64,000 nt of DNA from a phage. Shown piece by piece: positions 1,492 through 63,453 of this stretch. Each line of letters starts with the position of its first letter. The stretch's first letter is position 1. The stretch is from the sequence record PZ026127.1; one strand, given 5' to 3'. The notes below the pieces were generated by a model that saw only the letters and a list, made by a program, of their open reading frames with translations, ran no database searches and was not told where the DNA came from. Made by a program: the position numbers and the translations under genes.

Positions 1492-1542
1492 GTTTACATC
1501 TCCTGTAGTCATGATACTATAGACCTATCAACTACAGGAGAT
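1492..1542 (+). promoter_or_regulatory. Early promoter / stem-loop cassette (PeSL-like) upstream of denV
   Basis: GTTTAC 1492-1497, 17-nt spacer, TGaTACTAT 1512-1520, conserved AGACCTATCAAC; perfect 11-bp inverted repeat ATCTCCTGTAG (1498-1508) / CTACAGGAGAT (1532-1542) enclosing the -10 and SD. Confidence 0.6.
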
Positions 1543-1548
1543 TAAAAA

Positions 1549-1956
1549 ATGACTCGTATCAACCTTACCTTAGTATCTGAATTGGCTGACCAACACTTAA
1601 TGGCTGAATACCGTGAACTCCCACGGATTTTTGGTGCGGTTCGCGAACGTATTGCCAAAGGGCAAGGCTTCTCTGATATCCCTAAAGACTTCCGCCTTGG
1701 TGCAGGGCACGTCAAGTTCTTTTATGACAAAATTGGATTTTTGTTCTTGCGACAAAATGCAATAATTGAGGAACTTCTGAAGCGTGGTTACCAGATTCAA
1801 AATACCCATGTAGACGTAGCGGATATTCCATTACGGCTCATGAACGATTTCACCCCATCCGAAGCTGATATAGCTTTAAGCCAAGCTCGTCTGGACGAAA
1901 AAATTGCACAGCGTCCTACCTGGTACAAACATTACGGCAAGGCTATTTACGCTTAA
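1549..1956 (+). CDS. denV: Endonuclease V (pyrimidine dimer DNA glycosylase)
   Basis: 135 aa; strong match to T4 DenV ([26 protein letters not shown], GAGHVxFFYDK, [25 protein letters not shown]). Confidence 0.92.
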
Positions 1957-1998
1957 TTAAATCCGTGATAGAATATTTCTATCAACTTAAGGAATAAT

Positions 1999-2358
1999 AT
2001 GAAAACTTACCAACAATTTATTACTGAATCTACTCAGCGCATTAACGAAGCTATGTCTCCTGAACAATTGGCTAAGGCTAAAGAAGGGCTGAACCCATCT
2101 GAAGTTTTTAAAGTTACAGGTAAAGACTTTGCTTCCATGGCCACTAACCAAAGTCTGGCTAAAGAACTTAAATCTAAATCTAACTTCATTCATGCTACAT
2201 GGAATGGTGATTCTCTTACTTCAATAAGCGTGTACAATAAAAAAGGTCTCCTTAAGAGCTCTTATGGCGCTGATGCCATCCGTGTTTCTAAATCAGATTG
2301 GCATAAAAACACTACTAAAGCAGAAAAACCTCATAACCCAGCCCTTGACCATCTTTAA
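1999..2358 (+). CDS. Internal protein with capsid targeting sequence
   Basis: N-terminus MKTYQQFITEST; 119 aa; no other recognisable domain. Confidence 0.55.
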   Translation: MKTYQQFITESTQRINEAMSPEQLAKAKEGLNPSEVFKVTGKDFASMATNQSLAKELKSKSNFIHATWNGDSLTSISVYNKKGLLKSSYGADAIRVSKSDWHKNTTKAEKPHNPALDHL

Positions 2359-2366
2359 GGAATAAT

Positions 2367-2624
2367 ATGAAAACTTATCAAGAATTTATTACAGAATCCA
2401 CTTTAGTTTCTAAACGTTGGAATATGATTGTAAACGTTAAACCTTCCGGCACTGAAGTTTCTATGGCCGACCCTAATGATGACGAACTTGAGCACGCTTT
2501 TAGCTCTAAAGAAACTGACGAGAAAGTGGTTAAGCAACTGGTTGCTGATGCAGACCAACTTCGTAAAGTAGCAGATGTTGTTAAGCTGTTTACTAAGAAA
2601 GGTTTTAAACACGAAGAACGTTAA
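2367..2624 (+). CDS. Internal protein with capsid targeting sequence
   Basis: N-terminus MKTYQEFITEST, near-identical to the preceding ORF's N-terminus; 85 aa, acidic. Confidence 0.55.
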   Translation: MKTYQEFITESTLVSKRWNMIVNVKPSGTEVSMADPNDDELEHAFSSKETDEKVVKQLVADADQLRKVADVVKLFTKKGFKHEER

Positions 2625-2773
2625 TTAGCATTTTAAATGGGAGCAACCTGGACCTCACAATTCTGTGAGGGACTCCCGCCAACCTGTAATAAGGTCGAGC
2701 CCAAGTGCGGTAATGGGTAAATGCAGAAAGGGACGAATTAATGTGCCAAGGAACGGCCCTCAAAGGAAATACT

Positions 2774-3301
2774 ATGAAATTTTTAACTCCCATTTATCTA
2801 ACCTTAATGCACGCCTTCGCTGAACGCGCCATTGAACGTTTAGACTCAGACCAATATACCTGGTATGAACCTGCTTCAAGAATGCAAGAGTTTGGTACTC
2901 TTCGACTTGATGGCGGACGCCAAACAGGTAAAACAAGTGCCCTTGCTCAGTTCGCCGCTGATTGGGTTTCCAAGGGTAATGATGTGATTGTTATGTCGAG
3001 TTCTTCGCATCGCTCGCGAGAAATTTGTAATGTAATAAAACAGGTTTCTAAGGCACACCCACATCTCCAAGTCGAAGGTCCTGGTTTTGTTGTCTATGAT
3101 ACTGTGCGCAGTTTCCTTGATGAAGACAATTTCCATAAGTATCGTGGACTATCTGTTACTCGATTATTGATTATTATCGAAGAGCCAATGCGCCTTCCAG
3201 CGATGGATAAGTTCTATGAAGCTTACCAGGTAATGATTAATAAATTTATGTGCCAAGGCGACAAGCCTTTGCCTCTGTTCTTTGTGATAGGAATGCAATG
3301 A
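2774..3301 (+). CDS. Hypothetical P-loop NTPase
   Basis: Walker A-like GGRQTGKTS and Walker B-like LLIIIEEP; start moved to ATG 2774 (SD AAAGGAAA upstream). Confidence 0.4.
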   Translation: MKFLTPIYLTLMHAFAERAIERLDSDQYTWYEPASRMQEFGTLRLDGGRQTGKTSALAQFAADWVSKGNDVIVMSSSSHRSREICNVIKQVSKAHPHLQVEGPGFVVYDTVRSFLDEDNFHKYRGLSVTRLLIIIEEPMRLPAMDKFYEAYQVMINKFMCQGDKPLPLFFVIGMQ

Positions 3302-3594
3302 TGACTGATGAAGAACTTTTTGAGTTCTGTTATTTCTCACGTAAGGTTCGAAGAGAGGACCTTACTGCAAATTTCGAATATGCTTATTTCTACCCATTGG
3401 AATATGTATTCATGACAGGGCCCTTTAAGGGCCCTCGTTTTAGATGTCATGCCCCAAGCATCCGATTAATGAAACAGGTTCCTTACTTCACCCTCGAGTT
3501 CATCTCAGGGCCTTGTAAGGGTATTATTACTCGCAGTCTCTTAACTTATGACCAAGAGATTCATATGATTTCTGATTGGAAAAAATATGTCTAA
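3298..3594 (+). CDS. Hypothetical protein
   Basis: ORF with ATGA start/stop overlap with upstream gene; unknown function. Confidence 0.35.
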   Translation: MMTDEELFEFCYFSRKVRREDLTANFEYAYFYPLEYVFMTGPFKGPRFRCHAPSIRLMKQVPYFTLEFISGPCKGIITRSLLTYDQEIHMISDWKKYV

Positions 3595-3805
3595 ATTGAC
3601 AATTGAAGGTTCTGAAGAAGCTCTGAAAAGATTTGTTGAATGGCTTAATGGACCAGGTGAACAAGACTTTCTGGAAGTCTGGGATGGCGGTCGGTGGAAT
3701 GGTAAAGAAATGATTTACCCGACTACCTATATCTCCGTGCAAGGTTGGACTGAAGGCCTTCGTTTGGTAGAATATGATATCGCAACTGGCGAGGAAGTGA
3801 AATGA
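3587..3805 (+). CDS. Hypothetical protein
   Basis: 72-aa ORF, overlapping start/stop with neighbours. Confidence 0.4.
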   Translation: MSKLTIEGSEEALKRFVEWLNGPGEQDFLEVWDGGRWNGKEMIYPTTYISVQGWTEGLRLVEYDIATGEEVK

Positions 3806-4289: not shown

Positions 4290-4293
4290 AGCA

Positions 4294-4344
4294 GTTTACA
4301 TCTCCTGTAGACGTGGTACTATAGACCTATCAACTACAGGAGAT
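4294..4344 (+). promoter_or_regulatory. Early promoter / stem-loop cassette (PeSL-like)
   Basis: GTTTAC 4294-4299; TGgTACTAT 4314-4322; inverted repeat ATCTCCTGTAG (4300-4310) / CTACAGGAGAT (4334-4344); ATG 4351. Confidence 0.6.
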
Positions 4345-4350
4345 TACAAA

Positions 4351-4809
4351 ATGTCAGAAATTAATTCAGAAGTATTCATCCGCCGCAATAAATTACGTCG
4401 TCAGTTCGAAACCGAATTCCGTGAACTGAATACGTCCATCAAAAAAGCCGCCATCAAGAGCGGAGTCCCAGCCTTCTTTATTAAGTACTCTAATCACTTG
4501 TTGGACCGTGCTATCCAACGTGAAATCGACGAAAAATACGTTTTTGCTTTATTCAAGCAACTCCATAACCATGTTAAAGAAATTCATGAATTTTTAATCC
4601 AGGAACCTCTACCTGATGTAGAATCCGAAATTGTCCCTGGTAAAGTGTATCGTCCATTGCGTCTCGAAATTACCGATAAAACCTTATGGCTAGGTATGAC
4701 AGTAGACCGTAAACATCCTGATAAAGGATATTCCCTTAAATGTCGTATGGCATTTGTTAACTCTAAACGTTTAGAAGGTAAAACCAGCACGAAAGTAATC
4801 TATCTTTAA
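4351..4809 (+). CDS. RegB-like endoribonuclease (tentative)
   Basis: 152 aa; size and position between denV and tk as for T4 regB; sequence resemblance is from memory only. Confidence 0.4.
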   Translation: MSEINSEVFIRRNKLRRQFETEFRELNTSIKKAAIKSGVPAFFIKYSNHLLDRAIQREIDEKYVFALFKQLHNHVKEIHEFLIQEPLPDVESEIVPGKVYRPLRLEITDKTLWLGMTVDRKHPDKGYSLKCRMAFVNSKRLEGKTSTKVIYL

Positions 4810-4821
4810 TAATGAGGTCTC

Positions 4822-8172: not shown

Positions 8173-8176
8173 TCAA

Positions 8177-8204
8177 AGGTCTCACTTCGGTGGGACCTTT
8201 TTTC
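8177..8204 (+). terminator. Rho-independent terminator (UUCG tetraloop)
   Basis: GGTCTCAC-TTCG-GTGGGACC followed by TTTTTT. Confidence 0.65.
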
Positions 8205-8212: not shown

Positions 8213-8263
8213 GTTTACATCCTCTAGGAACATGATACTATAGACCTATCAACTAATGAGGAG
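8213..8263 (+). promoter_or_regulatory. Early promoter / stem-loop cassette (PeSL-like)
   Basis: GTTTAC 8213-8218, TGaTACTAT, TAGACCTATCAAC, partial inverted repeat containing GAGGAG SD; ATG 8270. Confidence 0.55.
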
Positions 8264-8269
8264 AACAGT

Positions 8270-8506
8270 ATGAAACTTACAAGTACTACGGTTTCATTAG
8301 AATATGAAATCAACGGTCGTATCCTTGAGATTAAGATATTCGACGACCGAAGTATCTTCGCTGATTATCGAGGATACAGAATTCGTCTAGAAAAGGACGA
8401 GCTCAAGGAACCATGGCTCCTTAAAGACACATTAAAGGGTTGTGGATGTAAACTGAAGACTACCCAAGCCCAAGAATTAATTTCTACTATCAACAAATAC
8501 TGGTGA
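8270..8506 (+). CDS. Hypothetical protein
   Basis: 78-aa ORF directly downstream of cassette. Confidence 0.45.
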   Translation: MKLTSTTVSLEYEINGRILEIKIFDDRSIFADYRGYRIRLEKDELKEPWLLKDTLKGCGCKLKTTQAQELISTINKYW

Positions 8507-11060: not shown

Positions 11061-11082
11061 AAAAGGCCTTCGGGCCTTTTTT
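11061..11082 (+). terminator. Rho-independent terminator (UUCG tetraloop)
   Basis: AAAGGCC-TTCG-GGCCTTTTTT. Confidence 0.65.
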
Positions 11083-11101
11083 GGGTTTAGTGCAAAAAAG
11101 A

Positions 11102-11150
11102 GTTTACACTCTCGTAGAGCATGTTATTATGGACCTATCAAATCTACTGA
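11102..11150 (+). promoter_or_regulatory. Early promoter cassette (PeSL variant)
   Basis: GTTTAC 11102-11107; TATTAT -10-like; GGACCTATCAA conserved box. Confidence 0.45.
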
Positions 11151-11167
11151 GTGAAATGGAGAATATA

Positions 11168-12148
11168 ATGTTAACTATCAAAATCAACAAAGGTGTCTAT
11201 CGCGGTAATGAAATCTCTGGTACGTTCATGAGTTCAGGTAAAACCTGGTTCCCTAATAAAATTCATGAATCTGAAGCTCACCTCGGTGATGGTAAGGTAT
11301 TCGTACAGATTGATGGTGTTGAACGTGGTGTATGGGTATTCAAATCTGATATCGAAACCGAAGGTGCTGAAGCTCCTGTAGTGGTTACCGAATCTTCTGA
11401 AGAAATGAAACACCGCATCAACAAACGTTTTAAAGTAATGAACATGATGACTAATGGAATCATCGATGGTAAAATTCGTTCCCTTATCATCTCTGGTGCC
11501 GCAGGTATTGGTAAAACATATTCTTTGGATAAAGCATTACAGAATGCCCACGAAAATGAAACTATCGAATATAAATCAATCAACGGAAAGATTAGTGGAA
11601 TCGGTCTTTACGAGCAGCTTTGGAATAACCGCGGCCCTAATAGTGTTCTTCTTATTGATGATGTTGATGTATTCTCTGATATGGATATCCTGAACCTGTT
11701 AAAAGCAGCATTGGATACCGGTGAAAAACGTAAGGTGTGCTGGAGCACTTCAAGTTCTTACCTCGATGATAAAAATATCGATAAAGAATTCGAATACGAA
11801 GGCACCATCGTGTTCATCACCAACGTTGATATCGACCGTGAATTAGAGCGCGGAACTAAACTTGCTCCACACCTCCAGGCTTTAGTATCTCGTTCAGTTT
11901 ACTTAGACCTCGGAGTTCACTCTAACGAAGAGATTATGGTCCGTGTTGAAGACGTTATCCTGTCCACTGATATGATGCAAAACCGTGGTCTGACTGATGC
12001 CGAGACTTATCAAGCACTGTCCTGGATGAAGGCTAATGTATCTCGTCTTCGTAACGTATCATTACGTACAGCTCTTTATCTGGCGGACTTCATTGCCACC
12101 GATAAAAATGACTGGAGCGAAATCGCTGAAGTTACACTTCTGAAATAA
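11168..12148 (+). CDS. AAA-type ATPase, unknown function
   Basis: Walker A GAAGIGKT, Walker B LLIDDVD; start set at ATG 11168 downstream of GGAG (ATG 11156 is an alternative). Confidence 0.5.
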   Translation: MLTIKINKGVYRGNEISGTFMSSGKTWFPNKIHESEAHLGDGKVFVQIDGVERGVWVFKSDIETEGAEAPVVVTESSEEMKHRINKRFKVMNMMTNGIIDGKIRSLIISGAAGIGKTYSLDKALQNAHENETIEYKSINGKISGIGLYEQLWNNRGPNSVLLIDDVDVFSDMDILNLLKAALDTGEKRKVCWSTSSSYLDDKNIDKEFEYEGTIVFITNVDIDRELERGTKLAPHLQALVSRSVYLDLGVHSNEEIMVRVEDVILSTDMMQNRGLTDAETYQALSWMKANVSRLRNVSLRTALYLADFIATDKNDWSEIAEVTLLK

Positions 12149-12502: not shown

Positions 12503-12552
12503 GTTTACATCTCCAGTAGAAATGATACTATAGACCTATCAACTACTGGAGG
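12503..12552 (+). promoter_or_regulatory. Early promoter / stem-loop cassette (PeSL-like)
   Basis: GTTTAC 12503-12508; TGaTACTAT; inverted repeat CTCCAGTAG (12511-12519) / CTACTGGAG (12543-12551), compensatory relative to other copies; ATG 12558. Confidence 0.6.
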
Positions 12553-12557
12553 TTATC

Positions 12558-13082
12558 ATGAACGCTAAAGATATTTTTTCACTGATTAATTTCAACAACG
12601 GTAATTTCAAATCTGAAAAACAAAGCAAGTTCTTTAACGACGTTGCTTGTGGTAATGAGATTACCGTATCTGGAGGAGAGATTTACAAAAGCCGTTGGAA
12701 CTGGATTGTTATCATCGATTCAGTTGGTATTGTAGAGCTCTATAAAAACACTAACAAAAAACGTACTCTTCACTGGAGTCGTGAAACCAATCAAGCTTAT
12801 CAAGCTGAACGTAACAAACGTTTAATGCCTACCGAATCTGACCTGGCAAACGTTAAATCTGATATCGCTTATTTCGATAATCTGATTGCTGAACAACAAG
12901 CAGTTATTGATAAGTTTGACGAAATCAAAGCTTGTAAAGAGATTCCTGAATTTATGCGGGAATCAGTAAACGAACAGTACGCCCTCACTTCAGGTCGTAT
13001 CGAGCAGTACAAATCACAACGAGCTGAACGCCAAGCTCTGCTTCATAAATTTGAAGAGCGTTTAAAGACGGTTCTCGCATAA
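12558..13082 (+). CDS. Hypothetical protein
   Basis: 174-aa ORF downstream of cassette. Confidence 0.45.
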   Translation: MNAKDIFSLINFNNGNFKSEKQSKFFNDVACGNEITVSGGEIYKSRWNWIVIIDSVGIVELYKNTNKKRTLHWSRETNQAYQAERNKRLMPTESDLANVKSDIAYFDNLIAEQQAVIDKFDEIKACKEIPEFMRESVNEQYALTSGRIEQYKSQRAERQALLHKFEERLKTVLA

Positions 13083-19833: not shown

Positions 19834-19886
19834 GTTTACTTCCTCTCCTCACGTGTTATAGTCTATCCTATCAACACATGAGGAGA
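19834..19886 (+). promoter_or_regulatory. Early promoter / stem-loop cassette (PeSL-like)
   Basis: GTTTAC 19834-19839; TGtTATAGT; inverted repeat CTCCTCACGTG (19845-19855) / CACATGAGGAG (19875-19885); ATG 19892. Confidence 0.55.
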
Positions 19887-19891
19887 ACATT

Positions 19892-20074
19892 ATGACTATC
19901 CAAGATAAAGAAATTAAAGCCGACCAGTATTATTTGGTAAATGGGCGTGCGGTTCGTGTAATTGCTGCTAGCGATTCAGACGTATGGTACCGTGTACTAG
20001 ACCATAGAAATATTCCATTGATGGTATGTGACCGTAGTTTGTTTTGTTCGATAGCTAAGGAAATTAAATTATGA
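19892..20074 (+). CDS. Hypothetical protein
   Basis: 60-aa ORF. Confidence 0.4.
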   Translation: MTIQDKEIKADQYYLVNGRAVRVIAASDSDVWYRVLDHRNIPLMVCDRSLFCSIAKEIKL

Positions 20075-20327: not shown

Positions 20328-20621
20328 ATGGGTAAAACTATTCGTCGTAAAGAATTGTCTGTAAAAGATTTTTATTATTCCGGACGTCGTAAAGCACCGG
20401 ACGGCGTAAGTCAGGAACTGGTTGAAGAAAATATCTTCCGTTCCGACAAGTGGAAACGTATGCGCGGTGTTGATTCTGAAGTTAAGAACGAAATGAACCG
20501 CCAGCTTCGTAAAGAAGTGAGAAAGCTGAAAAAAGATGTTTACAATGACGATGAACCTGATTACAATACTTCTCATCGAGTTGCAAAACGTAAATCAAAC
20601 GAATGTTATCGTTATAGCTGA
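20328..20621 (+). CDS. Hypothetical basic protein
   Basis: 97-aa, Lys/Arg-rich ORF. Confidence 0.4.
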   Translation: MGKTIRRKELSVKDFYYSGRRKAPDGVSQELVEENIFRSDKWKRMRGVDSEVKNEMNRQLRKEVRKLKKDVYNDDEPDYNTSHRVAKRKSNECYRYS

Positions 20622-27281: not shown

Positions 27282-27980
27282 ATGAAATTCTCTAAAGAAA
27301 CTCTGAACATTCTGAAAAACTTCTCCAGTATTAACCCAGGTATCATGCTTAAGCCTGGTAACACTATTCTAACTCGTTCAGTAACGGGTGCAAGTTATGG
27401 TGAAGCTACTGTAAGCGATACCTTTGATATCGAAGCCGCAATCTACGACCTGAACGGCTTCTTAAGTATTCTGTCATTGGTATCCGATAGTGCTGAAGTT
27501 TCAGTAAGTGAAGACCAAACCACTTTAATTATTAAAGACCAACGTTCAACTATTAAGTGGCCTATTGCTGACCCAAGTACAATTGCATTCCCAAGCAAAG
27601 CTATTCCATTCCCGGTGGCTGAAGTTATTTTTGACCTTAAAGCCGAAGATTACCAACAGTTGATGCGTGTGTCCTCTGGATTGAGTATTGATACATTTGC
27701 TATCACTGTAGACAACGGTAAAATTGTAATCAATGGCTACAAACAAGTTGATGATAAGGACCTGGCACGTCCATTGTATTCCTTAGTGGTTGCAGACCAT
27801 GATGGTCCTGAATTCAAATTCATTATCAACAAAACCAATATGAAAATGATGCCTGCTGATTACCATGTATTGCTATGGGCTCGTGGTGAAGGTCAGGATG
27901 CTCGTTTCGCAGCCAAGTTTGAAGGTTCACAAGCTTCTTATGTATTGGCTATGGAAGCAGGCTCAAGCCACTCGTTCTAA
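27282..27980 (+). CDS. 45: Sliding clamp gp45
   Basis: 232 aa; strong match to T4 gp45 (LKNFxxINxGIMLK, AAIYDLNGFLxILSLVxD, KWPxADPST, MKMxPxxYxxLLWA). Confidence 0.93.
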   Translation: MKFSKETLNILKNFSSINPGIMLKPGNTILTRSVTGASYGEATVSDTFDIEAAIYDLNGFLSILSLVSDSAEVSVSEDQTTLIIKDQRSTIKWPIADPSTIAFPSKAIPFPVAEVIFDLKAEDYQQLMRVSSGLSIDTFAITVDNGKIVINGYKQVDDKDLARPLYSLVVADHDGPEFKFIINKTNMKMMPADYHVLLWARGEGQDARFAAKFEGSQASYVLAMEAGSSHSF

Positions 27981-33465: not shown

Positions 33466-33520
33466 GTTTACATACCACAAGGAACGTGGTAGTATCCTTC
33501 CTATCAACTACATGAGGAAA
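33466..33520 (+). promoter_or_regulatory. Early promoter cassette (PeSL variant)
   Basis: GTTTAC 33466-33471; TAGTAT; CCTTCCTATCAAC box; ATG 33526. Confidence 0.45.
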
Positions 33521-33525
33521 TTACA

Positions 33526-33762
33526 ATGGAAGCTTTAATCGTTAGTGCTGGTGTTTTAGGATTCGGTTCTCTGGTTATTATGTTCATCGGTTACTTTTTA
33601 CCATGGATTCTGGCTCTTCTGCGAGGCACTCGTAGTAATGTCGGAATTTTCTTCCTTAATCTCCTGTTAGGCTGGACGATGATTGGTTGGGTAGTGGCTT
33701 TAATCTGGGCTATCGTCGCTGAACGTAAATCAAACGCACAAATCATTATTGTTAAGCAATGA
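33526..33762 (+). CDS. Small two-helix membrane protein (Imm-like, positional)
   Basis: 78 aa, two hydrophobic helices, GW...ALIWA motif; occupies the T4 imm position after gene 43. Confidence 0.45.
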   Translation: MEALIVSAGVLGFGSLVIMFIGYFLPWILALLRGTRSNVGIFFLNLLLGWTMIGWVVALIWAIVAERKSNAQIIIVKQ

Positions 33763-41635: not shown

Positions 41636-41660
41636 GGAGCTTCGGCTCCTTTTTTGTTTT
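41634..41660 (+). terminator. Rho-independent terminator (UUCG tetraloop)
   Basis: AGGAGC-TTCG-GCTCCTTTTTT. Confidence 0.65.
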
Positions 41661-41665: not shown

Positions 41666-41712
41666 GTTTACATCTCCTGTAGGCGTGATACTATAGACCT
41701 ATCAACTTGGAG
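41666..41712 (+). promoter_or_regulatory. Early promoter / stem-loop cassette (PeSL-like)
   Basis: GTTTAC 41666-41671; CTCCTGTAGG; TGATACTATAGACCTATCAAC. Confidence 0.55.
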
Positions 41713-41718
41713 AACAAA

Positions 41719-42036
41719 ATGAAAACCATCGACTGTAAAGCAGAATATAAAGTGTATTACCATGGAAGTTGTAGTGTCGCTAATATCGGTAATATGCTTT
41801 GTCCTCCTGAGGAAACAGGAGTTCTGTCTGAAACCGGTCGTAAGAAAAACCTAAATCGTGTGTTCTTTACTGAAGATATCGGTTTGGCTAAGATTTATGC
41901 TGGACGTGCAGCTCGTTCAGTGGGAGGAGAACCCCGTCTTTATCGTGTAATTGCTCCGGTAGATGTGGTTTGTTTAAATGATACTAAAGGCGCTACAGTT
42001 TATCATGCTGAATGGGCCTTCTGTGAGGAAATCTAA
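41719..42036 (+). CDS. Hypothetical protein
   Basis: Start at ATG 41719 (track TTG start lies in promoter). Confidence 0.45.
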   Translation: MKTIDCKAEYKVYYHGSCSVANIGNMLCPPEETGVLSETGRKKNLNRVFFTEDIGLAKIYAGRAARSVGGEPRLYRVIAPVDVVCLNDTKGATVYHAEWAFCEEI

Positions 42037-42613: not shown

Positions 42614-42666
42614 GTTTACAACGGTCTATGGTAGTGATACTATGGACCTATCAACTACCGAGGAGA
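42614..42666 (+). promoter_or_regulatory. Early promoter / stem-loop cassette (PeSL-like)
   Basis: GTTTAC 42614-42619; GTGATACTATGGACCTATCAAC; SD GAGGAG. Confidence 0.55.
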
Positions 42667-42671
42667 ACATT

Positions 42672-42965
42672 ATGAAAAAGTTATTAATCGCAGCAATCCT
42701 TACAGTAGCATCATGTGGCACAGCTCCAGTTACGGCTGGATTGGATAAAGACCTTTGTGAATGGTCTATGACTGCAGACCAAGAATCGGTTGAACATCAG
42801 ATTTATGCCGATATCATGAACATCACTAAACGCGACCGCCCTGATATGGCTAAAGAAGTGTCAGACCAATTAGCTTCAGGTGGTGTTATGCAATATAACT
42901 GGAATTTGTATTGTGATGCCAATTTCGATAACAAAAATATCGTTAAAGAGGTGACAGGTGAATAA
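42672..42965 (+). CDS. Putative lipoprotein
   Basis: Start at ATG 42672; signal peptide with lipobox VASCG. Confidence 0.5.
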   Translation: MKKLLIAAILTVASCGTAPVTAGLDKDLCEWSMTADQESVEHQIYADIMNITKRDRPDMAKEVSDQLASGGVMQYNWNLYCDANFDNKNIVKEVTGE

Positions 42966-45839: not shown

Positions 45840-46497
45840 GGCTAAGTTTTATAGAACTTATTTGATAAAAATTAGGACGCCGAAAGGTGTCTTTTGGTAT
45901 GGTGGTAAACATGAAACCTTTATACTAAATCCAAATAAAGATAGATATCCAGGTTCTGGCAAAATCTTATGGAATATGTATAAAAAGTATGGTCTAAAAT
46001 ATAAAATACGTTGGTTTGTAGGCCACCAAAATTTAGAAGAATCTTTTAATCATGAAAGACTTTTAATAGCCAAAATAAGAGAAAAGCATCCTAACGAATG
46101 CTTGAATATATTACCAGGTGGCGCTGGCAGCGAAGGACATAAATGGACTGAAGAACAGTGTATAGAGCACAAGCTTAGATTAAATAAACCTGAAACTAAG
46201 ATTAAAATGAGGAAGGCTCAAGCTATAGCTCAGAATAGGCCTGAACGTAAAGCTCGTCAATCAGAAATAATGAAAGAGTTTTATGAGAATGGTGGGAATA
46301 AATTAATATCTGAAGCCACTTCTAAAGCTCAACGAACTGCTCCTCATTGGCATGAACCATTGAAAAGCGAAATCTATAATATTTGGCTTTCATTAGGTAA
46401 ACCAACTACAGGTCCTGTAGTCAAAGAACTTAAAGGTAAATATGACGTTACCGCAAGTGCTCTCAAAAATTTAATATACTCTTTTAGAGATATATAA
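45802..46497 (+). CDS. Putative free-standing GIY-YIG-type homing endonuclease (Seg-like)
   Basis: N-terminal YRTYLIKIRTPKGVFWYGGKH, LPGGAGS, NUMOD3-like HKWTEEQCIEHKLRLNK; overlaps 3' end of 56; start uncertain (ATG 45802 or GTG 45829). Confidence 0.5.
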   Translation: MLKTLQGRTVAIKAKFYRTYLIKIRTPKGVFWYGGKHETFILNPNKDRYPGSGKILWNMYKKYGLKYKIRWFVGHQNLEESFNHERLLIAKIREKHPNECLNILPGGAGSEGHKWTEEQCIEHKLRLNKPETKIKMRKAQAIAQNRPERKARQSEIMKEFYENGGNKLISEATSKAQRTAPHWHEPLKSEIYNIWLSLGKPTTGPVVKELKGKYDVTASALKNLIYSFRDI

Positions 46498-46531: not shown

Positions 46532-46765
46532 ATGGGTGGTTTCGTTAATATCAAAACCTTTACACATCCAGCTGGTGAAGGTAAAGAAGTTAAAGGTACT
46601 GAGGTTTCGGTTCCGTTTGAGATTTATTCAAACGAGCACCGTATTGCAGACTCTCATTATCAGACTTTCCCTTCGGCCGTTGCAGCCTATACTACTGTAG
46701 TGACTGATGCAGCCGATTGGCGAACTAAGAACGCAGCAATGTTCACGCCGACCCCAGTAGTTTAA
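46532..46765 (+). CDS. soc: Small outer capsid protein Soc
   Basis: 77 aa; VNIKTF and HYQTFPS motifs as in T4 Soc. Confidence 0.75.
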   Translation: MGGFVNIKTFTHPAGEGKEVKGTEVSVPFEIYSNEHRIADSHYQTFPSAVAAYTTVVTDAADWRTKNAAMFTPTPVV

Positions 46766-46769: not shown

Positions 46770-46795
46770 AAGGAACCTTCGGGTTCCTTTTTTGG
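46770..46795 (+). terminator. Rho-independent terminator (UUCG tetraloop)
   Basis: GGAACC-TTCG-GGTTCC followed by TTTTTT. Confidence 0.65.
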
Positions 46796-46859
46796 TTTTA
46801 AGGGTTTACTTTCTAAGAAGGTTATGTTAAGATGGTCTTATCTTATAGAGGAGAACACT

Positions 46860-47069
46860 ATGTTAAATCGTTGGATTAAACCAAATAAAACTTTAGATGA
46901 AATTATCGCTAACCACGTATTGAAAAAGTACTTTTATACGCCTTGGTATACCGAAGTTATTGTCCATTCATTTATGATGCATGAAGACGGTTCTATCGAA
47001 TTTAATGCCGAAATCCGTCACGAGACTGATGATATTGATAAAGTTGAATTTAAACGAGGTTTCCTATGA
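46860..47069 (+). CDS. Hypothetical protein
   Basis: Start at ATG 46860 (SD GAGGAGAA). Confidence 0.4.
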   Translation: MLNRWIKPNKTLDEIIANHVLKKYFYTPWYTEVIVHSFMMHEDGSIEFNAEIRHETDDIDKVEFKRGFL

Positions 47070-48416: not shown

Positions 48417-48419
48417 AGT

Positions 48420-48470
48420 TTTACACCTCCTCCCTTCATGTTATAATGACCTCTAAATCACCGGAGGTCA
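48420..48470 (+). promoter_or_regulatory. Early promoter with downstream SD-containing hairpin
   Basis: TTTACA/TATAAT (48442-48447); hairpin GACCTC (48449-48454) / GAGGTC (48465-48470) includes the SD; ATG 48472. Confidence 0.5.
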
Positions 48471-48471
48471 T

Positions 48472-49041
48472 ATGAACATCGAACAAAAATGTCTTTATCA
48501 AGACCGAATCAATTCCAAATTCTCAAAACACGAACAGAATCTTTTAGAAAAATGTCTGGATGCTAAAAAAGACCCTAACTTCCATTACGACCTTGACAAA
48601 CTGGTTCGCAAGCATGTTACTTCAGCGGTTCCAGTAGAGTTGTATCGTGGGATTACCACCAGAGAACTTGAGCAATTAGAGCTCCTTTCAGTAGGTTGTC
48701 AATGGTCTCCTGGTCGAGTTACTTCTTTTAGTACACAATACTCTCAGGCTCGTCAATTCGCAGGGGCATGGGAATATGGAACCAAAACCATTTTAAGTCT
48801 CAGGAATGCACCGTTCATTTTCGACTACTACAATCATGCTATCGACCTTGTTCTTGCAGGGAATGTGGATGAGCTTGAAATAGATGAAACCCGTATTGAC
48901 CTCTATGATATGGTTGAAACTGAATGTGAGTTCATGGTCTCCAGCCTATCAAGATTTGAGATTGTTGAAATCGAAACCGTCAAAAGGGACCCGTACGAAA
49001 TCGAGTACAAAACAATTCATTTAAAAATGTTGGATTTTTAG
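48472..49041 (+). CDS. ModA/ModB-like ADP-ribosyltransferase paralog 1 (tentative)
   Basis: 189 aa; LYRG motif, S-x-S region, acidic C-terminal motif; tandem paralog upstream of dda as for T4 modA/modB. Confidence 0.4.
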   Translation: MNIEQKCLYQDRINSKFSKHEQNLLEKCLDAKKDPNFHYDLDKLVRKHVTSAVPVELYRGITTRELEQLELLSVGCQWSPGRVTSFSTQYSQARQFAGAWEYGTKTILSLRNAPFIFDYYNHAIDLVLAGNVDELEIDETRIDLYDMVETECEFMVSSLSRFEIVEIETVKRDPYEIEYKTIHLKMLDF

Positions 49042-49070
49042 TTTACAGGCAAGGAAGCTTGTGGTACTAT
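49041..49070 (+). promoter_or_regulatory. Sigma70-type early promoter
   Basis: GTTTAC 49041-49046, TGgTACTAT 49062-49070, CTATCAAC box. Confidence 0.5.
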
Positions 49071-49095
49071 CTTTCTATCAACTGAGGAGAATAAT

Positions 49096-49710
49096 ATGTT
49101 ATATCCAAGCCATAAATTAGCAGAATTTATCAACAATGCCAAATGCGATGATTTCCGTGAGAATACTCAGATAGAAATTGATGAGGTGTATTCTGATTTA
49201 GAACAGAGTACCCTCTGGCAGTGTATGGAAAATAAACCGGATACTATCCAGGAAACTCTGAACAAAATTATTCGTAAGAACCTGACTTCTGTAGTGCCTG
49301 ACAAGTTGTACCGTGGGATTTCTAAGAAGACTATGGCATATCTTGAATCTACTATGTGTGTAGGTGCCGTAATTGAATTCGACCGAGTAATGAGCTTCTC
49401 AAAAGATTTCAATGTAGCTCGTAACTTCGCATCTTATAACTTCTACGGCACATTTAATATCTTTTGTATTAATGATGCACCATTTGTGTACAATTATCAG
49501 GAAGAAATCTTTAAAATGTTATGTGCCGCGCCCCCTGAAGAGTTCCCAGGTGCATTTCCTGAATCTACCCGTGTAGCAAACTTACAATTAATCAATGATG
49601 AAGATGAGATGATGTTCCCTGCGGGAACTACGCTGCGCGTAGACTCTATTGAGAGAAATCCTAAATGGAATAATTACACCATTTGGAATCTTTCCGTTCT
49701 TTCTTACTGA
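49096..49710 (+). CDS. ModA/ModB-like ADP-ribosyltransferase paralog 2 (tentative)
   Basis: 204 aa; shares VP..LYRGI and downstream blocks with the preceding ORF. Confidence 0.4.
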   Translation: MLYPSHKLAEFINNAKCDDFRENTQIEIDEVYSDLEQSTLWQCMENKPDTIQETLNKIIRKNLTSVVPDKLYRGISKKTMAYLESTMCVGAVIEFDRVMSFSKDFNVARNFASYNFYGTFNIFCINDAPFVYNYQEEIFKMLCAAPPEEFPGAFPESTRVANLQLINDEDEMMFPAGTTLRVDSIERNPKWNNYTIWNLSVLSY

Positions 49711-49779: not shown

Positions 49780-49830
49780 GTTTACTTTACCGAGCAACAT
49801 GATACTATAGACCTATCAGCTAATCGTCCG
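49780..49830 (+). promoter_or_regulatory. Early promoter cassette (PeSL-like)
   Basis: GTTTAC 49780-49785; CATGATACTATAGACCTATCAGC. Confidence 0.5.
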
Positions 49831-49848
49831 TAAGATGAGAAAAATATT

Positions 49849-50598
49849 ATGCCTACTATTAAAACTAACGATGAATTTGAGTTAAAGGTTTACAAACGTC
49901 GCGAACACACTAAAGCCTCTGCCAAAAAACGTGGTAAGGACTTTAACCTGTCTAGTAAGTACGTTCGTAGACTTCTTGAACAAAAAGTGTGTGCATATTC
50001 AGGCGAGCGCTTTGATGAGAATTCAGATAAAGATAAGATTTCGTTTGAACGCTTTAACAACGATATAGGTTATATCGAAGGTAATGTAATCCCGGTTAAA
50101 GTTAAGTACAACGGGTTGCGAGCTGATTTGTCTTTAGATGAATTGAAACGTGCACAGACTCGTTTAGCGTCCCGTATTTCAGGTGGTTCTAAAATGCCTA
50201 ATAGTTTTAAAGTTACCCCAGATAATTATTATAAAATTCGTAAAATAGTTAAAAATATTAAAGATACCCAAAGAGGTCTTAAAAAGCGTGAAAAACGTCT
50301 TAAGGACCTTATTAAATCAGGAGCCACTGATAATACCCCTTCTGTCATCGCGGTTAAGGCCCGTATCCATGGTTCTAACGCTTCAATAGGTACTATGGAA
50401 AAGGGTCTTAAATCTTTAATTGGTGGGCCTGATTGGCGTGTCAAGTTTAAATTGTCTGAAGCAGAAACGCGTTACGATATGTATGATAAAATTATTCAAG
50501 GTCTGGAGCGTTTAGAACACCTTTCTTTTATTGACAAAATGAAGTTGAAAAAAGGTCTTCCGCTGAATGCTTCAATTTTTTCACTGATTAGAGGTTAA
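49849..50598 (+). CDS. Hypothetical basic protein (Srd-like by size and position)
   Basis: 249 aa upstream of dda; assignment positional only. Confidence 0.3.
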   Translation: MPTIKTNDEFELKVYKRREHTKASAKKRGKDFNLSSKYVRRLLEQKVCAYSGERFDENSDKDKISFERFNNDIGYIEGNVIPVKVKYNGLRADLSLDELKRAQTRLASRISGGSKMPNSFKVTPDNYYKIRKIVKNIKDTQRGLKKREKRLKDLIKSGATDNTPSVIAVKARIHGSNASIGTMEKGLKSLIGGPDWRVKFKLSEAETRYDMYDKIIQGLERLEHLSFIDKMKLKKGLPLNASIFSLIRG

Positions 50599-53149: not shown

Positions 53150-53200
53150 GTTTACTTCTCCTCATGACATGATATTATCTACCCTATCAACATGAGGAGA
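53150..53200 (+). promoter_or_regulatory. Early promoter / stem-loop cassette (PeSL-like)
   Basis: GTTTAC 53150-53155; inverted repeat TCTCCTCATG (53157-53166) / CATGAGGAGA (53191-53200); ATG 53206. Confidence 0.55.
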
Positions 53201-53205
53201 ACAAA

Positions 53206-53715
53206 ATGAAAATTTATCGAGTGGAGTCATCGTTCAGTATCTTAGATAACAGCGATGTTATAGCAATCACTCACCAACAGTGCCGCCAATTAACACCGTA
53301 TAGAGGCTCGTTTGATGAATGGAGCGAAGGTTGGTTATTAGAAGTAGGTTTCGACAAACCTAATTTTAGACACCACCATACCAATAATAAAAATATTCCA
53401 CTACCAGGTCAAGACAAGTTGTTGGTGGAAAATTCTAATAAAACCATTCGAACTAAGTGGAACCAGCCTGATTATGAAGGCTGTGATGATTATATTCCAG
53501 GTTGGTTTGTTAATCTCTACCATTTTGCTTTTGCCAGTGAGTATGATATGATGCGCTGGTTCACTCGTGAAGAGCGTGAAGAATTATCTTCTAAAGGATT
53601 CTATCTTGCCGTTTACGAAATCCCTGAAGATGAGGTTGTCATTGGTGGCCGCCAAGTAATGTTCCGCAAATCCCATGCTGAACTCGTAGATTTTATTGAA
53701 TTGAGAACAATATGA
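53206..53715 (+). CDS. Hypothetical protein
   Basis: 169-aa ORF. Confidence 0.45.
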   Translation: MKIYRVESSFSILDNSDVIAITHQQCRQLTPYRGSFDEWSEGWLLEVGFDKPNFRHHHTNNKNIPLPGQDKLLVENSNKTIRTKWNQPDYEGCDDYIPGWFVNLYHFAFASEYDMMRWFTREEREELSSKGFYLAVYEIPEDEVVIGGRQVMFRKSHAELVDFIELRTI

Positions 53716-54260: not shown

Positions 54261-54263
54261 TAG

Positions 54264-54298
54264 TTTACTTTATCGAGAGCCATGTTATAATGGCTCTC
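54264..54298 (+). promoter_or_regulatory. Early promoter with inverted repeat flanking -10
   Basis: GTTTAC 54264-54269; TATAAT 54286-54291 flanked by GAGAGCCA / TGGCTCTC. Confidence 0.5.
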
Positions 54299-54333
54299 AT
54301 GGAGAATAAACTTATTAACCAAGAGAGAAAATT

Positions 54334-54885
54334 ATGATTACTATCGGTGAAATTGTTCGTGTATCCAAAGAATCTCGCTCAAAAGCCGCGGGTCGTTTTG
54401 TTGAAGTTGCTGGTATTCGTACTAATTTAGTAGGTGGAATTAAAGAAGTTAAAGTGCGTATTATTCCTAAAAATGGCCAGACTGAAACTCAATTCGCTTA
54501 TGTGCATCCTAAATTCCTGGAATCAACTGAATTCACTGGACACATCGCTCCTGTAGTTGAAGAAGTTGAATCCCATGATGGGTATGTATGTGAAAGCAAT
54601 GATATCCGTGGCGTAGTAGCTCAAGACGTTGAAACTATTGACCAATCTCATGTTGGTGTTGATTTCAAATGGAAATTAGGTAAAGGTGTCTTTTTCGTTT
54701 CACCTAAACCGTTTGAATACAATTGCAAGTATGGTCCGACTTATGAAACCACTAGTATGTCCGGTTACATCACAGACCAATGGGTTGAAGAAGGTGTTAA
54801 GCTGTATAACATCGTGTTCCTTGGCACCTTTAAAGTAGTTCCTGAAAGTTTTATTGTTGAGTACGCTGATATTCATTTTGCATAA
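54334..54885 (+). CDS. Hypothetical protein (paralog of previous gene)
   Basis: 183 aa; C-terminal SGYITDQWVEEGVKLYNIV...VVP. Confidence 0.45.
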   Translation: MITIGEIVRVSKESRSKAAGRFVEVAGIRTNLVGGIKEVKVRIIPKNGQTETQFAYVHPKFLESTEFTGHIAPVVEEVESHDGYVCESNDIRGVVAQDVETIDQSHVGVDFKWKLGKGVFFVSPKPFEYNCKYGPTYETTSMSGYITDQWVEEGVKLYNIVFLGTFKVVPESFIVEYADIHFA

Positions 54886-54897: not shown

Positions 54898-54950
54898 GTA
54901 TACAACAGGGTAGTAGTGTGATACTATTACCCTATCAACAAATGAGAGGA
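54898..54950 (+). promoter_or_regulatory. Early promoter cassette (PeSL variant)
   Basis: GTATAC; GTGATACTATTACCCTATCAAC; GGGTA/TACCC repeat. Confidence 0.45.
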
Positions 54951-54957
54951 AAATAAA

Positions 54958-55176
54958 ATGGCTAAAGTTACTGTGAACTCGACTCGTGAAGAATTTGAAG
55001 ATGTTCTGTTCAACCCTGATTTAATCGTGGTTCAAAAGGAACATTCTGATACGTTTTCTCATTTATCGTCGGTTTATGTATACGAAAACCAAGGTGATGA
55101 AAACCCTATCTATGCGGTGTTCCGTGAAATCACTGCTGAAGGCACCGACTTCTGGAAGGAAACTTATAATGCTTAA
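54958..55176 (+). CDS. Hypothetical protein
   Basis: 72-aa ORF. Confidence 0.4.
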   Translation: MAKVTVNSTREEFEDVLFNPDLIVVQKEHSDTFSHLSSVYVYENQGDENPIYAVFREITAEGTDFWKETYNA

Positions 55177-58727: not shown

Positions 58728-58734
58728 GAAAAAT

Positions 58735-60945: not shown

Positions 60946-60959
60946 TCTAAGGAAATATT

Positions 60960-61928: not shown

Positions 61929-61937
61929 ATCAATAAC

Positions 61938-61953
61938 GGAGGCTTCGGCCTCC
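61938..61953 (+). other. UUCG-tetraloop hairpin without U-tract
   Basis: GGAGGC-TTCG-GCCTCC directly upstream of SD GAGGAA; likely RNA stability or processing element rather than terminator. Confidence 0.4.
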
Positions 61954-61965
61954 TAATGAGGAATT

Positions 61966-62163
61966 ATGTTAGGTTACCAAGCACGTGTAGTTGAAGAATA
62001 CGACCAGTTAGTTCTTAAAATTAATGCACTAGAAACCTTTATTGAAGGTGGTGTTTTTGAAACTCTTGATATCCGTCAACAAGGGTTACTGATTGCCCAA
62101 CTGGACGCGATGGGTGCTTATGCTCATTGTTTAGAAGTTCGTATTTCTTATTTCGGTGAGTAA
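61966..62163 (+). CDS. Hypothetical protein
   Basis: 65-aa ORF. Confidence 0.4.
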   Translation: MLGYQARVVEEYDQLVLKINALETFIEGGVFETLDIRQQGLLIAQLDAMGAYAHCLEVRISYFGE

Positions 62164-62482
62164 AATGATTAATTATATGAATGTTGGCGACGAAGATATC
62201 AAAAATTCATATCTCCAAGGTAACCATGTGGTAGATAAGGTTTATTGTGTAGATGTAATCAAATCCGATAAAGCCACGGGCCATCTTTTCGCCGCAGACG
62301 TGATTTTTGATTCAATTGAAAACCTTAAAAAATTAGACCACAGTAAATTGAGTGAAAACTCTCGTATCTATTTTGGTAATGTTCACGTCGAAGAATTGTA
62401 TATTGGTGGTGATTATGAATCCGTCAAATCCGGGACTAGTTCGACTGTCGAAGATGCCGACATTTACCCTGAAGACATCTGA
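62156..62482 (+). CDS. Hypothetical acidic protein
   Basis: 108-aa ORF. Confidence 0.4.
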   Translation: MSKMINYMNVGDEDIKNSYLQGNHVVDKVYCVDVIKSDKATGHLFAADVIFDSIENLKKLDHSKLSENSRIYFGNVHVEELYIGGDYESVKSGTSSTVEDADIYPEDI

Positions 62483-62492
62483 TTTAACAGGT

Positions 62493-62972
62493 GAAATGAA
62501 GGTCAAGATTAAGGACACCGTATTGTATTCCTTAAGCCAAGACCCGTCCCAAGATAAGAAAGAAGTATTGACTCGGTGTGTCATTGCAACGTATGCCGAG
62601 TATATGGTGGCTGATTGGTTGAAAGGATACGTTAACAGTGGTCTGGAAGACCATGATGACCCTTATACCTATGCCTGGGATGTTTTAGCGCATCCTATGT
62701 ACTGTGGACTTCGTGTAGAGGTTAAGACCCACCAATCAGATTCTAAGTGGATTTCCTGCACTACAGGATACTCTGGTGACTTCCCGTATGGAACAGGGAT
62801 TAACCTGGGACCGCTCCTGAATCATAAAGTTGCAGACTGTATAATTATATTCGACACTTCAGTAAATGAGGCAGGCGACGTCCTGTTCACTCCTAAGTTC
62901 TCTGGTGACAGAGAAGCCATCACAAAGCTAGTCCGTAAGAGTAATTACAACGGCTGGTATCTCGCCTTATAA
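62493..62972 (+). CDS. Hypothetical protein
   Basis: Start at ATG 62493 (SD AGGTGAA); occupies the position after rIIB. Confidence 0.4.
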   Translation, partial: EMKVKIKDTVLYSLSQDPSQDKKEVLTRCVIATYAEYMVADWLKGYVNSGLEDHDDPYTYAWDVLAHPMYCGLRVEVKTHQSDSKWISCTTGYSGDFPYGTGINLGPLLNHKVADCIIIFDTSVNEAGDVLFTPKFSGDREAITKLVRKSNYNGWYLAL

Positions 62973-63044
62973 ATTTTTAAAATAGTATTTACATACGCCA
63001 TGGATGGTGTTACTATCTTCCTATCAACTAATGAGGAGAACAAA

Positions 63045-63311
63045 ATGGATATCAAATTATATTACGCTAAACACAAAGTTACAGGTATGGTTGTTGCCGC
63101 TATGTATGATGCATCAGGTGAAGGTGGTGATGTTACTACAGAGTTATCTCTTTCTGAATGTAAATTTCTCCGTCCCTTAATCGCATCAAAGGAAGATTTA
63201 GAAAAGCTTATTGATGGAAAACTGGATAATGTTGACGGCATAGATATTCTTTATGACCTCCGCACGGCATTGTACAGGGGATTGATTGAGATAAAAGAGG
63301 TGGTGTTTTGA
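63045..63311 (+). CDS. Hypothetical protein
   Basis: Start at ATG 63045 downstream of promoter cassette. Confidence 0.4.
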   Translation: MDIKLYYAKHKVTGMVVAAMYDASGEGGDVTTELSLSECKFLRPLIASKEDLEKLIDGKLDNVDGIDILYDLRTALYRGLIEIKEVVF

Positions 63312-63401
63312 GTAGCAAAATGTGGTGCCTTATTTGGATGGCCTGTATCCCAGTGATTTGCGTATGTTTTAGTTTATTGTTGTGGAAATTGGCATAAATC
63401 A

Positions 63402-63453
63402 GTATACATCTCCATTAATCATGATATTATAGACCTATCAACTAATGGAGATG
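63402..63453 (+). promoter_or_regulatory. Early promoter / stem-loop cassette (PeSL-like)
   Basis: GTATAC; perfect 11-bp inverted repeat CATCTCCATTA / TAATGGAGATG enclosing ATGATATTATAGACCTATCAAC; ATG 63457. Confidence 0.55.

Follow-up and report, generated by a model that had tools for sequence, protein, structure and literature searches.

Early promoters that carry an anti-Shine-Dalgarno arm in a T4-like phage: a candidate device for tying translation to a gene's own transcript

How can a gene that lies within longer transcripts be translated only from the RNA that starts at its own promoter? This question is raised by a stretch of phage DNA of 64,000 nucleotides (sequence record PZ026127.1; hereafter the window), along which an intergenic cassette recurs that comprises an early promoter, a Shine-Dalgarno (SD) sequence and a start codon, and in several copies of which promoter DNA is complementary to the SD region. 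A reading made from the letters alone (the sequence-only reading) had proposed that the SD would be locked in a hairpin in RNA read through from upstream and would be translatable in RNA initiated at the internal promoter. According to our comparisons and predicted folds, this mechanism is the best-supported reading, it would apply to about one third of the cassettes, and the comparison with T4 and other genera strengthened it considerably. The arrangement is best read as following the same logic as T4 gene e, but with an early promoter and within a shuffling cassette of the promoter(early) stem-loop (PeSL) type.

The window covers the early-gene arm of a T4-like phage that belongs to the genus Dhakavirus (JS98/WG01/PSD9 group), with 97.7% identity to Shigella phage PSD9 over its first 20 kb and about 88-94% identity to JS98. 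All of its genes are on the + strand, in an order that reads, in T4 terms, e, ipIII and denV, then regB, nrdC, 46, 45, 43, uvsX, 41, modA/B and motB, then rIIA/rIIB. The cassette has the consensus GTTTAC, 17-18 nt, TGnTAnnAT, (AGAC)CTATCAAC, SD and ATG. A strict pattern (GTTTAC-N16-18-TANNAT-N3-5-CTATCA) gave 11 matches, on the + strand only, compared to none in 100 dinucleotide shuffles, and 16 copies bearing the box after the -10 were recovered once one mismatch in the -35 or the box was permitted. In total the window holds about 24 early-type promoters, again on the + strand only and each upstream of an open reading frame (ORF). The exact 12-mer box AGACCTATCAAC occurs six times, every copy of the cassette ends in GGAG or GAGG with an ATG 5-9 nt later, and the 40 nt upstream of the -35 are slightly enriched in AT (mean 63% versus 60.7% window-wide). 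Counting from the -10, the A of CTATCAAC is the seventh base, so that the box is most simply taken as discriminator plus first transcribed bases; T4 early promoters carry the near-identical ACAACTATCAAC. A scan of the whole window against Rfam gave no match at gathering thresholds.

Not all copies have the hairpin. The sequence-only reading had counted about 20 copies with covarying arms enclosing the SD; the cassette itself recurs far beyond chance, but the count of hairpins was too generous, as only seven copies have a strong SD-enclosing hairpin and three a decayed one. The seven precede denV, regB, nrdC.8, a 60-aa ORF, modB, motB.2 and a 36-aa ORF (Table 1), and the four hairpins that had been quoted individually (denV, nrdC.8, motB.2 and the 36-aa ORF) were found in place. 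In six of the seven (-35 at 1492, 4294, 12503, 19834, 53150 and 63402), the beginning of the promoter spacer is paired with the SD region in a helix of 8-12 bp, inside which the extended -10 and the box form a small second helix (TGATA/TATCA). The loop of 22-26 nt contains the -10 and the predicted start site, and an A-rich spacer follows the stem. Minimum free energies (MFE) of these six range from -16.3 to -21.1 kcal/mol with z-scores from -3.6 to -6.2, and 0-1 of 200 shuffles were equally stable. In the seventh, at modB (48419), an arm reaching from the end of the -10 to about +1 masks the SD, as in gene e. Three further cassettes (42614, 54898 and 54263) have a second type of hairpin, formed between the spacer and a segment that comprises the 3' part of the -10 and the bases that follow, which leaves the SD free. 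Degenerate hairpins remain at 8213, 41666 and 11102, the copy at 788 retains the 5' arm only, and the remaining copies have no significant structure.

We then compared the accessibility of the SD in two contexts, a read-through RNA of about 150 nt and the gene's own RNA starting at the seventh base after the -10, the presumed start site. In the predicted folds, the probability that the SD is unpaired was 0.00 for all seven masked cassettes in the read-through RNA and 0.26-0.78 in the own transcript; among the 17 other promoters of the window, the SD was masked in the read-through RNA at four. The 5' arm occupies about -33 to -23 of the promoter and ends at least 6 nt before the -10 (at modB it ends at the predicted +1), and for this reason it would be absent from the own transcript if the promoter is used as predicted. 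Geometry, folding and the comparison across genera thus stand behind the proposal of an SD locked in read-through RNA and free in RNA from the internal promoter, which would hold for only about seven of the roughly 24 promoters. With moderate confidence, we regard the promoter-embedded anti-SD as a translational insulator that would tie translation of a gene to its own early promoter.

Table 1. Early-promoter cassettes and related features of the window. MFE in kcal/mol; P, predicted probability that the SD is unpaired in read-through RNA / own RNA.
Feature	Position	Strand	Elements	MFE	z	P
Classical gene e arrangement	264..296	+	late promoter TATAAATA 264-271; TACCTCC 270-276 with GGAGGTA 285-291; ATG 294			
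denV cassette, SD-masking (DenV family match)	1492..1551	+	-35 1492-1497; -10 1515-1520; box 1521-1532; arms ATCTCCTGTAGT 1498-1509, ACTACAGGAGAT 1531-1542; ATG 1549	-20.7	-6.2	0.00 / 0.29
regB cassette, SD-masking (endoribonuclease family match)	4294..4353	+	arms ATCTCCTGTAG 4300-4310, CTACAGGAGAT 4334-4344; ATG 4351	-18.3	-3.8	0.00 / 0.26
nrdC.8 cassette, SD-masking (gene name from JS98 orthologue)	12503..12560	+	arms ATCTCCAGTAG 12509-12519, CTACTGGAGGT 12543-12553, one U-G pair; ATG 12558	-18.3	-3.6	
60-aa ORF cassette, SD-masking	19834..19894	+	arms TCTCCTCA 19844-19851, TGAGGAGA 19879-19886, also inner helix; ATG 19892	-21.1	-6.1	0.00 / 0.42
modB cassette, gene-e-like	48419..48474	+	5' arm ATGACCTCT 48446-48454; 3' arm GGAGGTCAT 48463-48471 adjoining ATG 48472	-13.0	-3.7	0.00 / 0.46
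motB.2 cassette, SD-masking	53150..53208	+	arms TTCTCCTCATG 53156-53166, CATGAGGAGAA 53191-53201; ATG 53206	-19.4	-5.4	0.00 / 0.78
36-aa ORF cassette, SD-masking, downstream of rIIB	63402..63459	+	arms CATCTCCATTA 63407-63417, TAATGGAGATG 63443-63453; ATG 63457	-16.3	-3.8	0.00 / 0.63
Box cassette, degenerate anti-SD arm	8213..8272	+	TCCTC/GAGGA only; directly behind terminator 8175-8200		-0.1	
Box cassette, truncated 3' arm	41666..41721	+	5' arm ATCTCCTGTAG intact, 3' arm CTTGGAGAA; behind terminator 41634-41651		-0.8	
Box cassette, imperfect pairing	11102..11170	+	spacer imperfectly paired to segment of untranslated region upstream of SD; behind terminator 11061-11080		-0.06	
Early promoter before ipIII, without box	788..872	+	ATCTCC 5' arm, no 3' partner			
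Box cassette, second hairpin type	42614..42674	+	spacer GGTCTATGGTA 42623-42633 with -10/box TACTATGGACC 42638-42648; SD free	-15.7		
Box cassette, second hairpin type	54898..54960	+	AGGGTAGTAGTG 54907-54918 with TACTATTACCCT 54922-54933; SD free	-15.2	-3.4	
Early promoter without box, second hairpin type	54263..54336	+	perfect 9-bp hairpin enclosing -10: GAGAGCCAT 54275-54283 with ATGGCTCTC 54290-54298	-22.5	-4.9	
Box cassette, no significant hairpin	1945..2001	+			-1.3	
Box cassette, no significant hairpin	33466..33528	+			-1.3	
Box cassette before modA (control gene)	49041..49098	+	SD unmasked on folding			
Box cassette, no significant hairpin	49780..49851	+			+0.4	
Box cassette, no significant hairpin	62987..63047	+			-0.35	
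Early-type promoter without box	46804..46862	+	behind terminator 46770-46789			

The claim that the arms differ between copies with pairing kept was borne out. First, in the window alone, RNAduplex energies of cognate spacer arms and 5' untranslated regions beat those of permuted partners (p = 1e-4 for the mean, 3.5e-4 for the number at or below -13 kcal/mol). Second, a pattern scan of IMG/VR returned 38 loci of JS98-group phages, and the energies of 99 distinct cassettes of related phages were bimodal, with 24 at or below -13 kcal/mol and the others in the noise (permutation p < 1/5000). Third, in alignment A1 seven of the 11 pairs of the outer helix have changed on both sides, which none of 500 shuffles matched and compared to which slid registers gave 0-4 pairs. 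The sequences had in part been selected for pairing. At least seven types of arms occur: TGTAG/CTACA, AGTAG/CTACT, ATTAG/CTAAT, TCATG/CATGA, TCTAG/CTAGA, TCTCCTCA/TGAGGAGA and a swap of the outer A-U to U-A; the cassettes at 1492 and 4294 have their arms in common. The covarying positions (A1 columns 7 and 13-16) flank a CTCC/GGAG core that is nearly invariant and uninformative by itself. A palindromic binding site for a protein was rejected as an explanation, since the arm sequences vary among copies and orthologues with pairing kept.

The element is not special to the phage of the window. T4 (NC_000866) has a near-identical denV cassette as well as helices between spacer and SD at regB (13 bp, of other sequence), motB.2 and nrdC.8. 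Of the 20 early promoters in T4 that have an extended -10, six go from a masked to a free SD (denV, nrdC.10, nrdC.8, nrdC.4, modB and motB.2), and T4 regB is borderline in its own transcript. Potential stem-loops before T4 ipIII, ipII and denV were reportedly noted by Valerie et al. in 1986, so that the T4 denV inverted repeat as such may be an old observation that was not interpreted in the present way. The arms of the window and of T4 are identical at denV and different at regB, nrdC.8, modB and motB.2; masking at these five genes is therefore a property common to two genera, mostly with different arms.

To extend the comparison, orthologous loci were fetched from IMG/VR and folded, and distinct upstream regions with the SD masked in read-through RNA were counted. 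Masking was found in 21 of 24 regions for denV of the T-even type, 10 of 16 for regB, 9 of 9 for motB.2, 10 of 13 for nrdC.8 and 6 of 6 for modB, i.e. in 56 of 68 for the five genes pooled across T4-like genera, compared to 2 of 10 for the control gene modA, which has its own early promoter and no hairpin in the window. The regB lineages include Salmonella phage STML-198/Melville, with arms of 15 bp, as well as Enterobacter phage CC31 and the Klebsiella KP17 type, in both of which a hairpin of the second type lies nested inside, and stacked against, a short CTCC/GGAG helix. At denV the 5' arm comes in two architectures, one in the spacer and one that starts within the end of the -10 and extends some 7 nt beyond it, as in gene e. 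That two architectures reach one outcome speaks for selection on SD masking rather than on one sequence, and this convergence of different solutions at one gene is the strongest argument that points to selected masking.

On the basis of these predictions, the element could operate as follows. Some of the strong sigma-70-type early promoters contain a stretch of 8-12 nt that is complementary to the SD region 20-35 nt downstream; it is located in the spacer between -35 and -10 or, in the modB type, between the -10 and +1. A polymerase arriving from upstream, be it from early, middle or late promoters or by delayed-early read-through, would copy both arms, and the RNA would fold into a hairpin of 11-17 bp with the -10 and the start-site box in the loop and the GGAG buried, leaving the cistron silent. 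Such RNA would probably also be spared cleavage by RegB at the masked site, because RegB needs a single-stranded GGAG. Initiation at the gene's own promoter, at about the A of CTATCAAC and hence downstream of the 5' arm, would instead yield an unstructured leader of 20-25 nt with the SD free, to be translated at once; for regB, motB.2, nrdC.8 and modB (as known in T4), this RNA would then be inactivated by RegB. The net outcome would be a short immediate-early burst of denV, regB, modB, motB.2, nrdC.8 and the two small ORFs that is independent of genomic context, which would suit a cassette that is relocated by recombination. In keeping with such a burst, synthesis of T4 RegB is described as under tight control, from an early promoter that is shut off at 2-3 min (PMC3014915). 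The SD regions of regB, motB.2 and nrdC.8 are cleaved by RegB in T4, and modB RNA is stably structured in vitro (PMC1702504).

Several observations weigh against this interpretation. Upstream regions of regB of the Klebsiella Potts1 type showed no SD masking when folded. As the upstream ORFs have their stop codons 20-40 nt ahead of it, the hairpin could be melted by a ribosome that completes translation of such an ORF. Natural phages also retain cassettes that are chimeric or degenerate (in L036 and L006 and at 41666 and 8213), so that the pairing is not essential everywhere. Hairpins of the second type are equally conserved yet leave the SD untouched, so that SD masking is not the whole story of hairpins that span these promoters. 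As cassettes spread as whole units, the apparent covariation is inflated, and the independent events number about 7-10 arm types rather than 25 cells. Finally, the ratio of G-U to A-C combinations in neutrally scored stems (38 versus 25) favours a strand-specific structure at the RNA level only weakly.

How does the arrangement relate to known systems? Masking in long transcripts with translation from an internal late promoter is proven for T4 e, soc, 49 and I-TevI, and the inhibitory structures listed are only those of e, soc, 49, I-TevI and related endonuclease genes (PMC3014915). The analogy with T4 gene e drawn by the sequence-only reading is apt: the window has its own gene e (lysozyme, 294-782, with a Phage_lysozyme match), in which TATAAATA lies in a TACCTCC/GGAGGTA hairpin. 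In common with the T4 genes, the cassettes would have the SD and/or AUG in a helix of long transcripts and have a promoter in or beside the 5' arm whose own RNA would be devoid of this arm, and modB and many denV cassettes share with gene e a 5' arm between the -10 and +1. They differ in that the T4 genes use a late promoter (gp55, TATAAATA) that delays translation, whereas here an early sigma-70 promoter would restrict it to the immediate-early period, and in that the main type has its 5' arm in the -35/-10 spacer. The late motif TATAAATA occurs in the window only at 264, 7412, 43783 and 46493, and the internal promoters of the masked early cassettes are not of the late type. The sites at 7412, 43783 and 46493 are all on the + strand, and the last is just upstream of soc (46532-46765), whose SD is masked in T4 (PMC3014915). 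In the literature open to full-text search (T4 reviews, RegB papers and PeSL papers), some key older T4 papers being outside this search, we found no description of an anti-SD embedded in an early promoter. A preprint on dRNA-seq and NAD caps reports 150 T4 start sites (bioRxiv 10.1101/2024.04.04.588121).

Another use for the hairpin is conceivable: it might act as a shield that hides internal GGAG motifs of long polycistronic early and middle RNAs from RegB, such that distal genes stay expressed and silence of the masked cistron is secondary. RegB requires a single-stranded GGAG and is blocked by secondary structure (PMC3014915; PMC1702504), the window encodes RegB, and every masked SD contains GGAG or GAGG. 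The T4 leaders of regB, motB.2, nrdC.8 and modB are substrates of RegB when single-stranded (PMC1702504). Yet the SD of T4 denV resists RegB for reasons of sequence (PMC1702504), although denV is masked most consistently (21 of 24), and many GGAG-containing SDs in the window are unmasked. Shielding is moreover compatible with an anti-SD insulator rather than exclusive of it, and we consider it unlikely to be the primary role.

A further explanation comes from the PeSL literature, and terminators near the cassettes bear on it. PeSLs were defined in coliphages RB49/phi1, with Aeromonas phages named in passing only (PMC2839356), so that the sequence-only reading erred in ascribing their description to Aeromonas T4-type phages. 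Their stem-loops are local and compact and are read as terminators or attenuators, SD masking being outside the published description; in PST/T4 they are drawn just upstream of the promoter (Arbiol et al. 2010, PMC2839356; Comeau et al. 2014, PMC4122927). Five positions are given for them: upstream of the -35 or overlapping it, between the two boxes, over the -10, and past the -10 but before the start. JS98-group phages enter that work with the gene 43 locus only (PMC2839356). The likeness to PeSL elements that had been noted holds for composition, repetition and role in shuffling: in each case, intergenic cassettes of about 60-100 bp that combine a stem-loop, an SD and a start codon with a strong sigma-70-type early promoter recur before small or variable early genes and are associated with indels and exchanges of ORFs among close relatives. 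Published stem-loop positions are also matched by the modB type and by the second hairpin type, which overlaps the -10. The likeness does not extend to SD masking, as the five positions do not include that of the main helix, which runs from the spacer to an SD past the start site, spans a loop of 22-26 nt, lacks a U-tract and is predicted to act on translation.

True terminators are found beside other cassettes. Four window cassettes (positions in Table 1) have a strong intrinsic terminator with a UUCG tetraloop 11-24 nt before the -35; all four are degenerate or unpaired, and none has an intact SD-masking hairpin. When the window, the JS98-group loci, JS98 and T4 are taken together (150 distinct cassettes), a terminator lies just upstream of 1 of 27 masked and 31 of 123 other cassettes (Fisher p = 0.01, orthologues not being independent). 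Terminator and anti-SD thus look like alternative means of insulation from upstream transcription. Terminator-plus-promoter junctions of T4-type early regions, which in the window belong to the same cassette family, likewise insulate a gene from upstream transcription; they differ in acting on transcription, via a GC stem, UUCG loop and U-tract, and are nearly mutually exclusive with the SD-masking hairpin. The SD-masking hairpins have no U-tracts and are absent from the terminator scan lists of the window, and an intrinsic terminator was therefore rejected as their identity, the scans having skipped them and yet found the UUCG-loop terminators beside other cassettes. In a separate setting, the denV homologues of jumbo phages (contigs L098-L101, 345-380 kb) have a terminator-like GC hairpin about 60 nt upstream whose stem contains the -35: GGGTTGACTTCGGTCAGCCC is followed by TTTTT and then TATAAT, with no SD masking, a composite that resembles the published PeSL class overlapping the -35.

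The classical PeSL explanation would have the stem-loop terminate or attenuate the upstream polymerase, with the promoter then restarting transcription. One RB49/phi1 stem-loop reduced downstream lacZ expression as much as the rrnB T1 terminator (PMC2839356), and masked cassettes lack a separate upstream terminator as if the hairpin had replaced it. Loops of 22-26 nt, A-rich spacers in place of U-tracts and a terminator scan that misses every one of the hairpins do not fit such a function, nor do a 3' arm that is always the SD, which termination does not need, and a gene-e-like variant that ends at the ATG. We judge it improbable for the SD-masking hairpins.

The repeats had also been suspected of driving the shuffling of modules. 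One clean case was found. In JS98 (L071 49220-49580, minus strand) an extra ORF of about 78 aa (MYAIKNYKYG...) sits between two near-identical cassettes GTGTACATCTGCTTTAAACATGTTATTATAGACCTATCA where the window has a single one (11087-11140; the cassette at 11102), which by its sequence is a textbook indel of the PeSL type. As a probable second case, an indel of 234 nt adjoins the cassette at 48419. Only two of about ten indel breakpoints between the window and JS98 are at cassettes, the other eight or so being elsewhere, and shuffling is thus real without being the main source of the differences between the two. Relatives contain chimeras: L036 combines a 5' arm of the type downstream of rIIB with a 3' arm of the nrdC.8 type, and L006 a 5' half of the second hairpin type with an nrdC.8 3' arm. 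The cassette at 41666 is probably recombinant as well, its orthologue in L020 having perfect arms. DenV of the window (1549-1956) has 96% identity to Klebsiella Potts1-type contigs (L072-L074) and 68-69% to the JS98 group (L080-L083), despite which it stands behind a JS98/T4-type cassette; it seems that the ORF was exchanged while the resident cassette stayed in place. Chimeric cassettes and the denV swap indicate that recombination inside the conserved -10/box core occurs and can break the pairing. Two larger insertions relative to JS98 were also seen, an ORF of 188 aa between 45 and 44 (27980-28575) and one of 231 aa between 56 and soc (45841-46492), the latter at the position of segF in T4; neither ORF has a Pfam match, and they may be mobile endonuclease-like genes.

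Such events could mean that the inverted repeat acts on DNA, as a cruciform or hairpin patch of homology for recombination or through template-switch "palindrome correction", with no role in RNA. The flanked JS98 ORF, the 234-nt indel, the chimeras, the Klebsiella-like denV ORF behind a JS98/T4-type cassette and the PeSL mini-circles demonstrated in RB49/phi1 (PMC2839356) can all be cited for it. Recombination, however, requires homology of the -35, -10 and box and not complementarity of the arms; the 5' arm pairs with the SD in every case; the stems tolerate U-G pairs, which are A-C mismatches on the other strand; and the property is specific to genes, being kept with unrelated arms and in two architectures. 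This explanation seems to us very improbable. Least credible of all is that the pairing is a functionless by-product of a CTCC-rich spacer that happens to complement a GGAG SD, for although the CTCC/GGAG core is nearly invariant and non-cognate arms of other masked cassettes also pair fairly well, the covariation flanks the core, stems of 13-18 bp (T4 regB, T4-type motB.2 and STML-198 regB) reach far past CTCC, the gene-e-like architecture uses no spacer CTCC and the control gene modA lacks the property.

Beyond the translational insulator in individual cassettes, it is possible, and we advance it tentatively, that the elements form a conserved class of T-even-type cis-elements not described before. 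An anti-SD carried within the early promoter, in the spacer or between the -10 and +1, would cause a fixed set of dosage-sensitive genes (the RNase RegB, the ADP-ribosyltransferase ModB, the DNA glycosylase DenV, motB.2 and nrdC.8) to be translated strictly from their own promoters and would render read-through RNA invisible to ribosomes and RegB, with independent architectures in different genera converging on this outcome and cassettes of the PeSL type carrying it. If so, it would add a missing layer to the T4 early-gene programme, as RegB, ModB and DenV would be confined to a burst in the first minutes despite longer transcripts that cover their genes, and it would explain why some GGAG sites in polycistronic RNAs escape RegB. 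A shuffled cassette would keep its expression level regardless of the upstream context, the gene e paradigm would be extended from "late only" to "own promoter only", and PeSL-type cassettes would gain a translational function beyond the terminator role proposed for them. The prediction lends itself to a simple test in T4, where these genes have the element too, and the design could be reused directly as a compact context-insulating part for synthetic operons.

Two further observations concern other structures. The second hairpin type, which is conserved to an equal degree, also occurs in T4 (57990, 20612 and 73939). Its spacer arm is matched to the 3' part of the -10 plus 4-8 nt further on and covaries with the box variants AGAC, AGCC, TACC and AGTC; it has no U-tract. 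Lastly, a promoter-like site within the 55.x coding region (20538-20610) shows long-range pairing of 10 bp (ACGATGA.../...TTATCGT) and has a counterpart at the orthologous T4 position 41261, with energies of -10.5 and -8.4 kcal/mol; it may be a real structured internal promoter or a coincidence.

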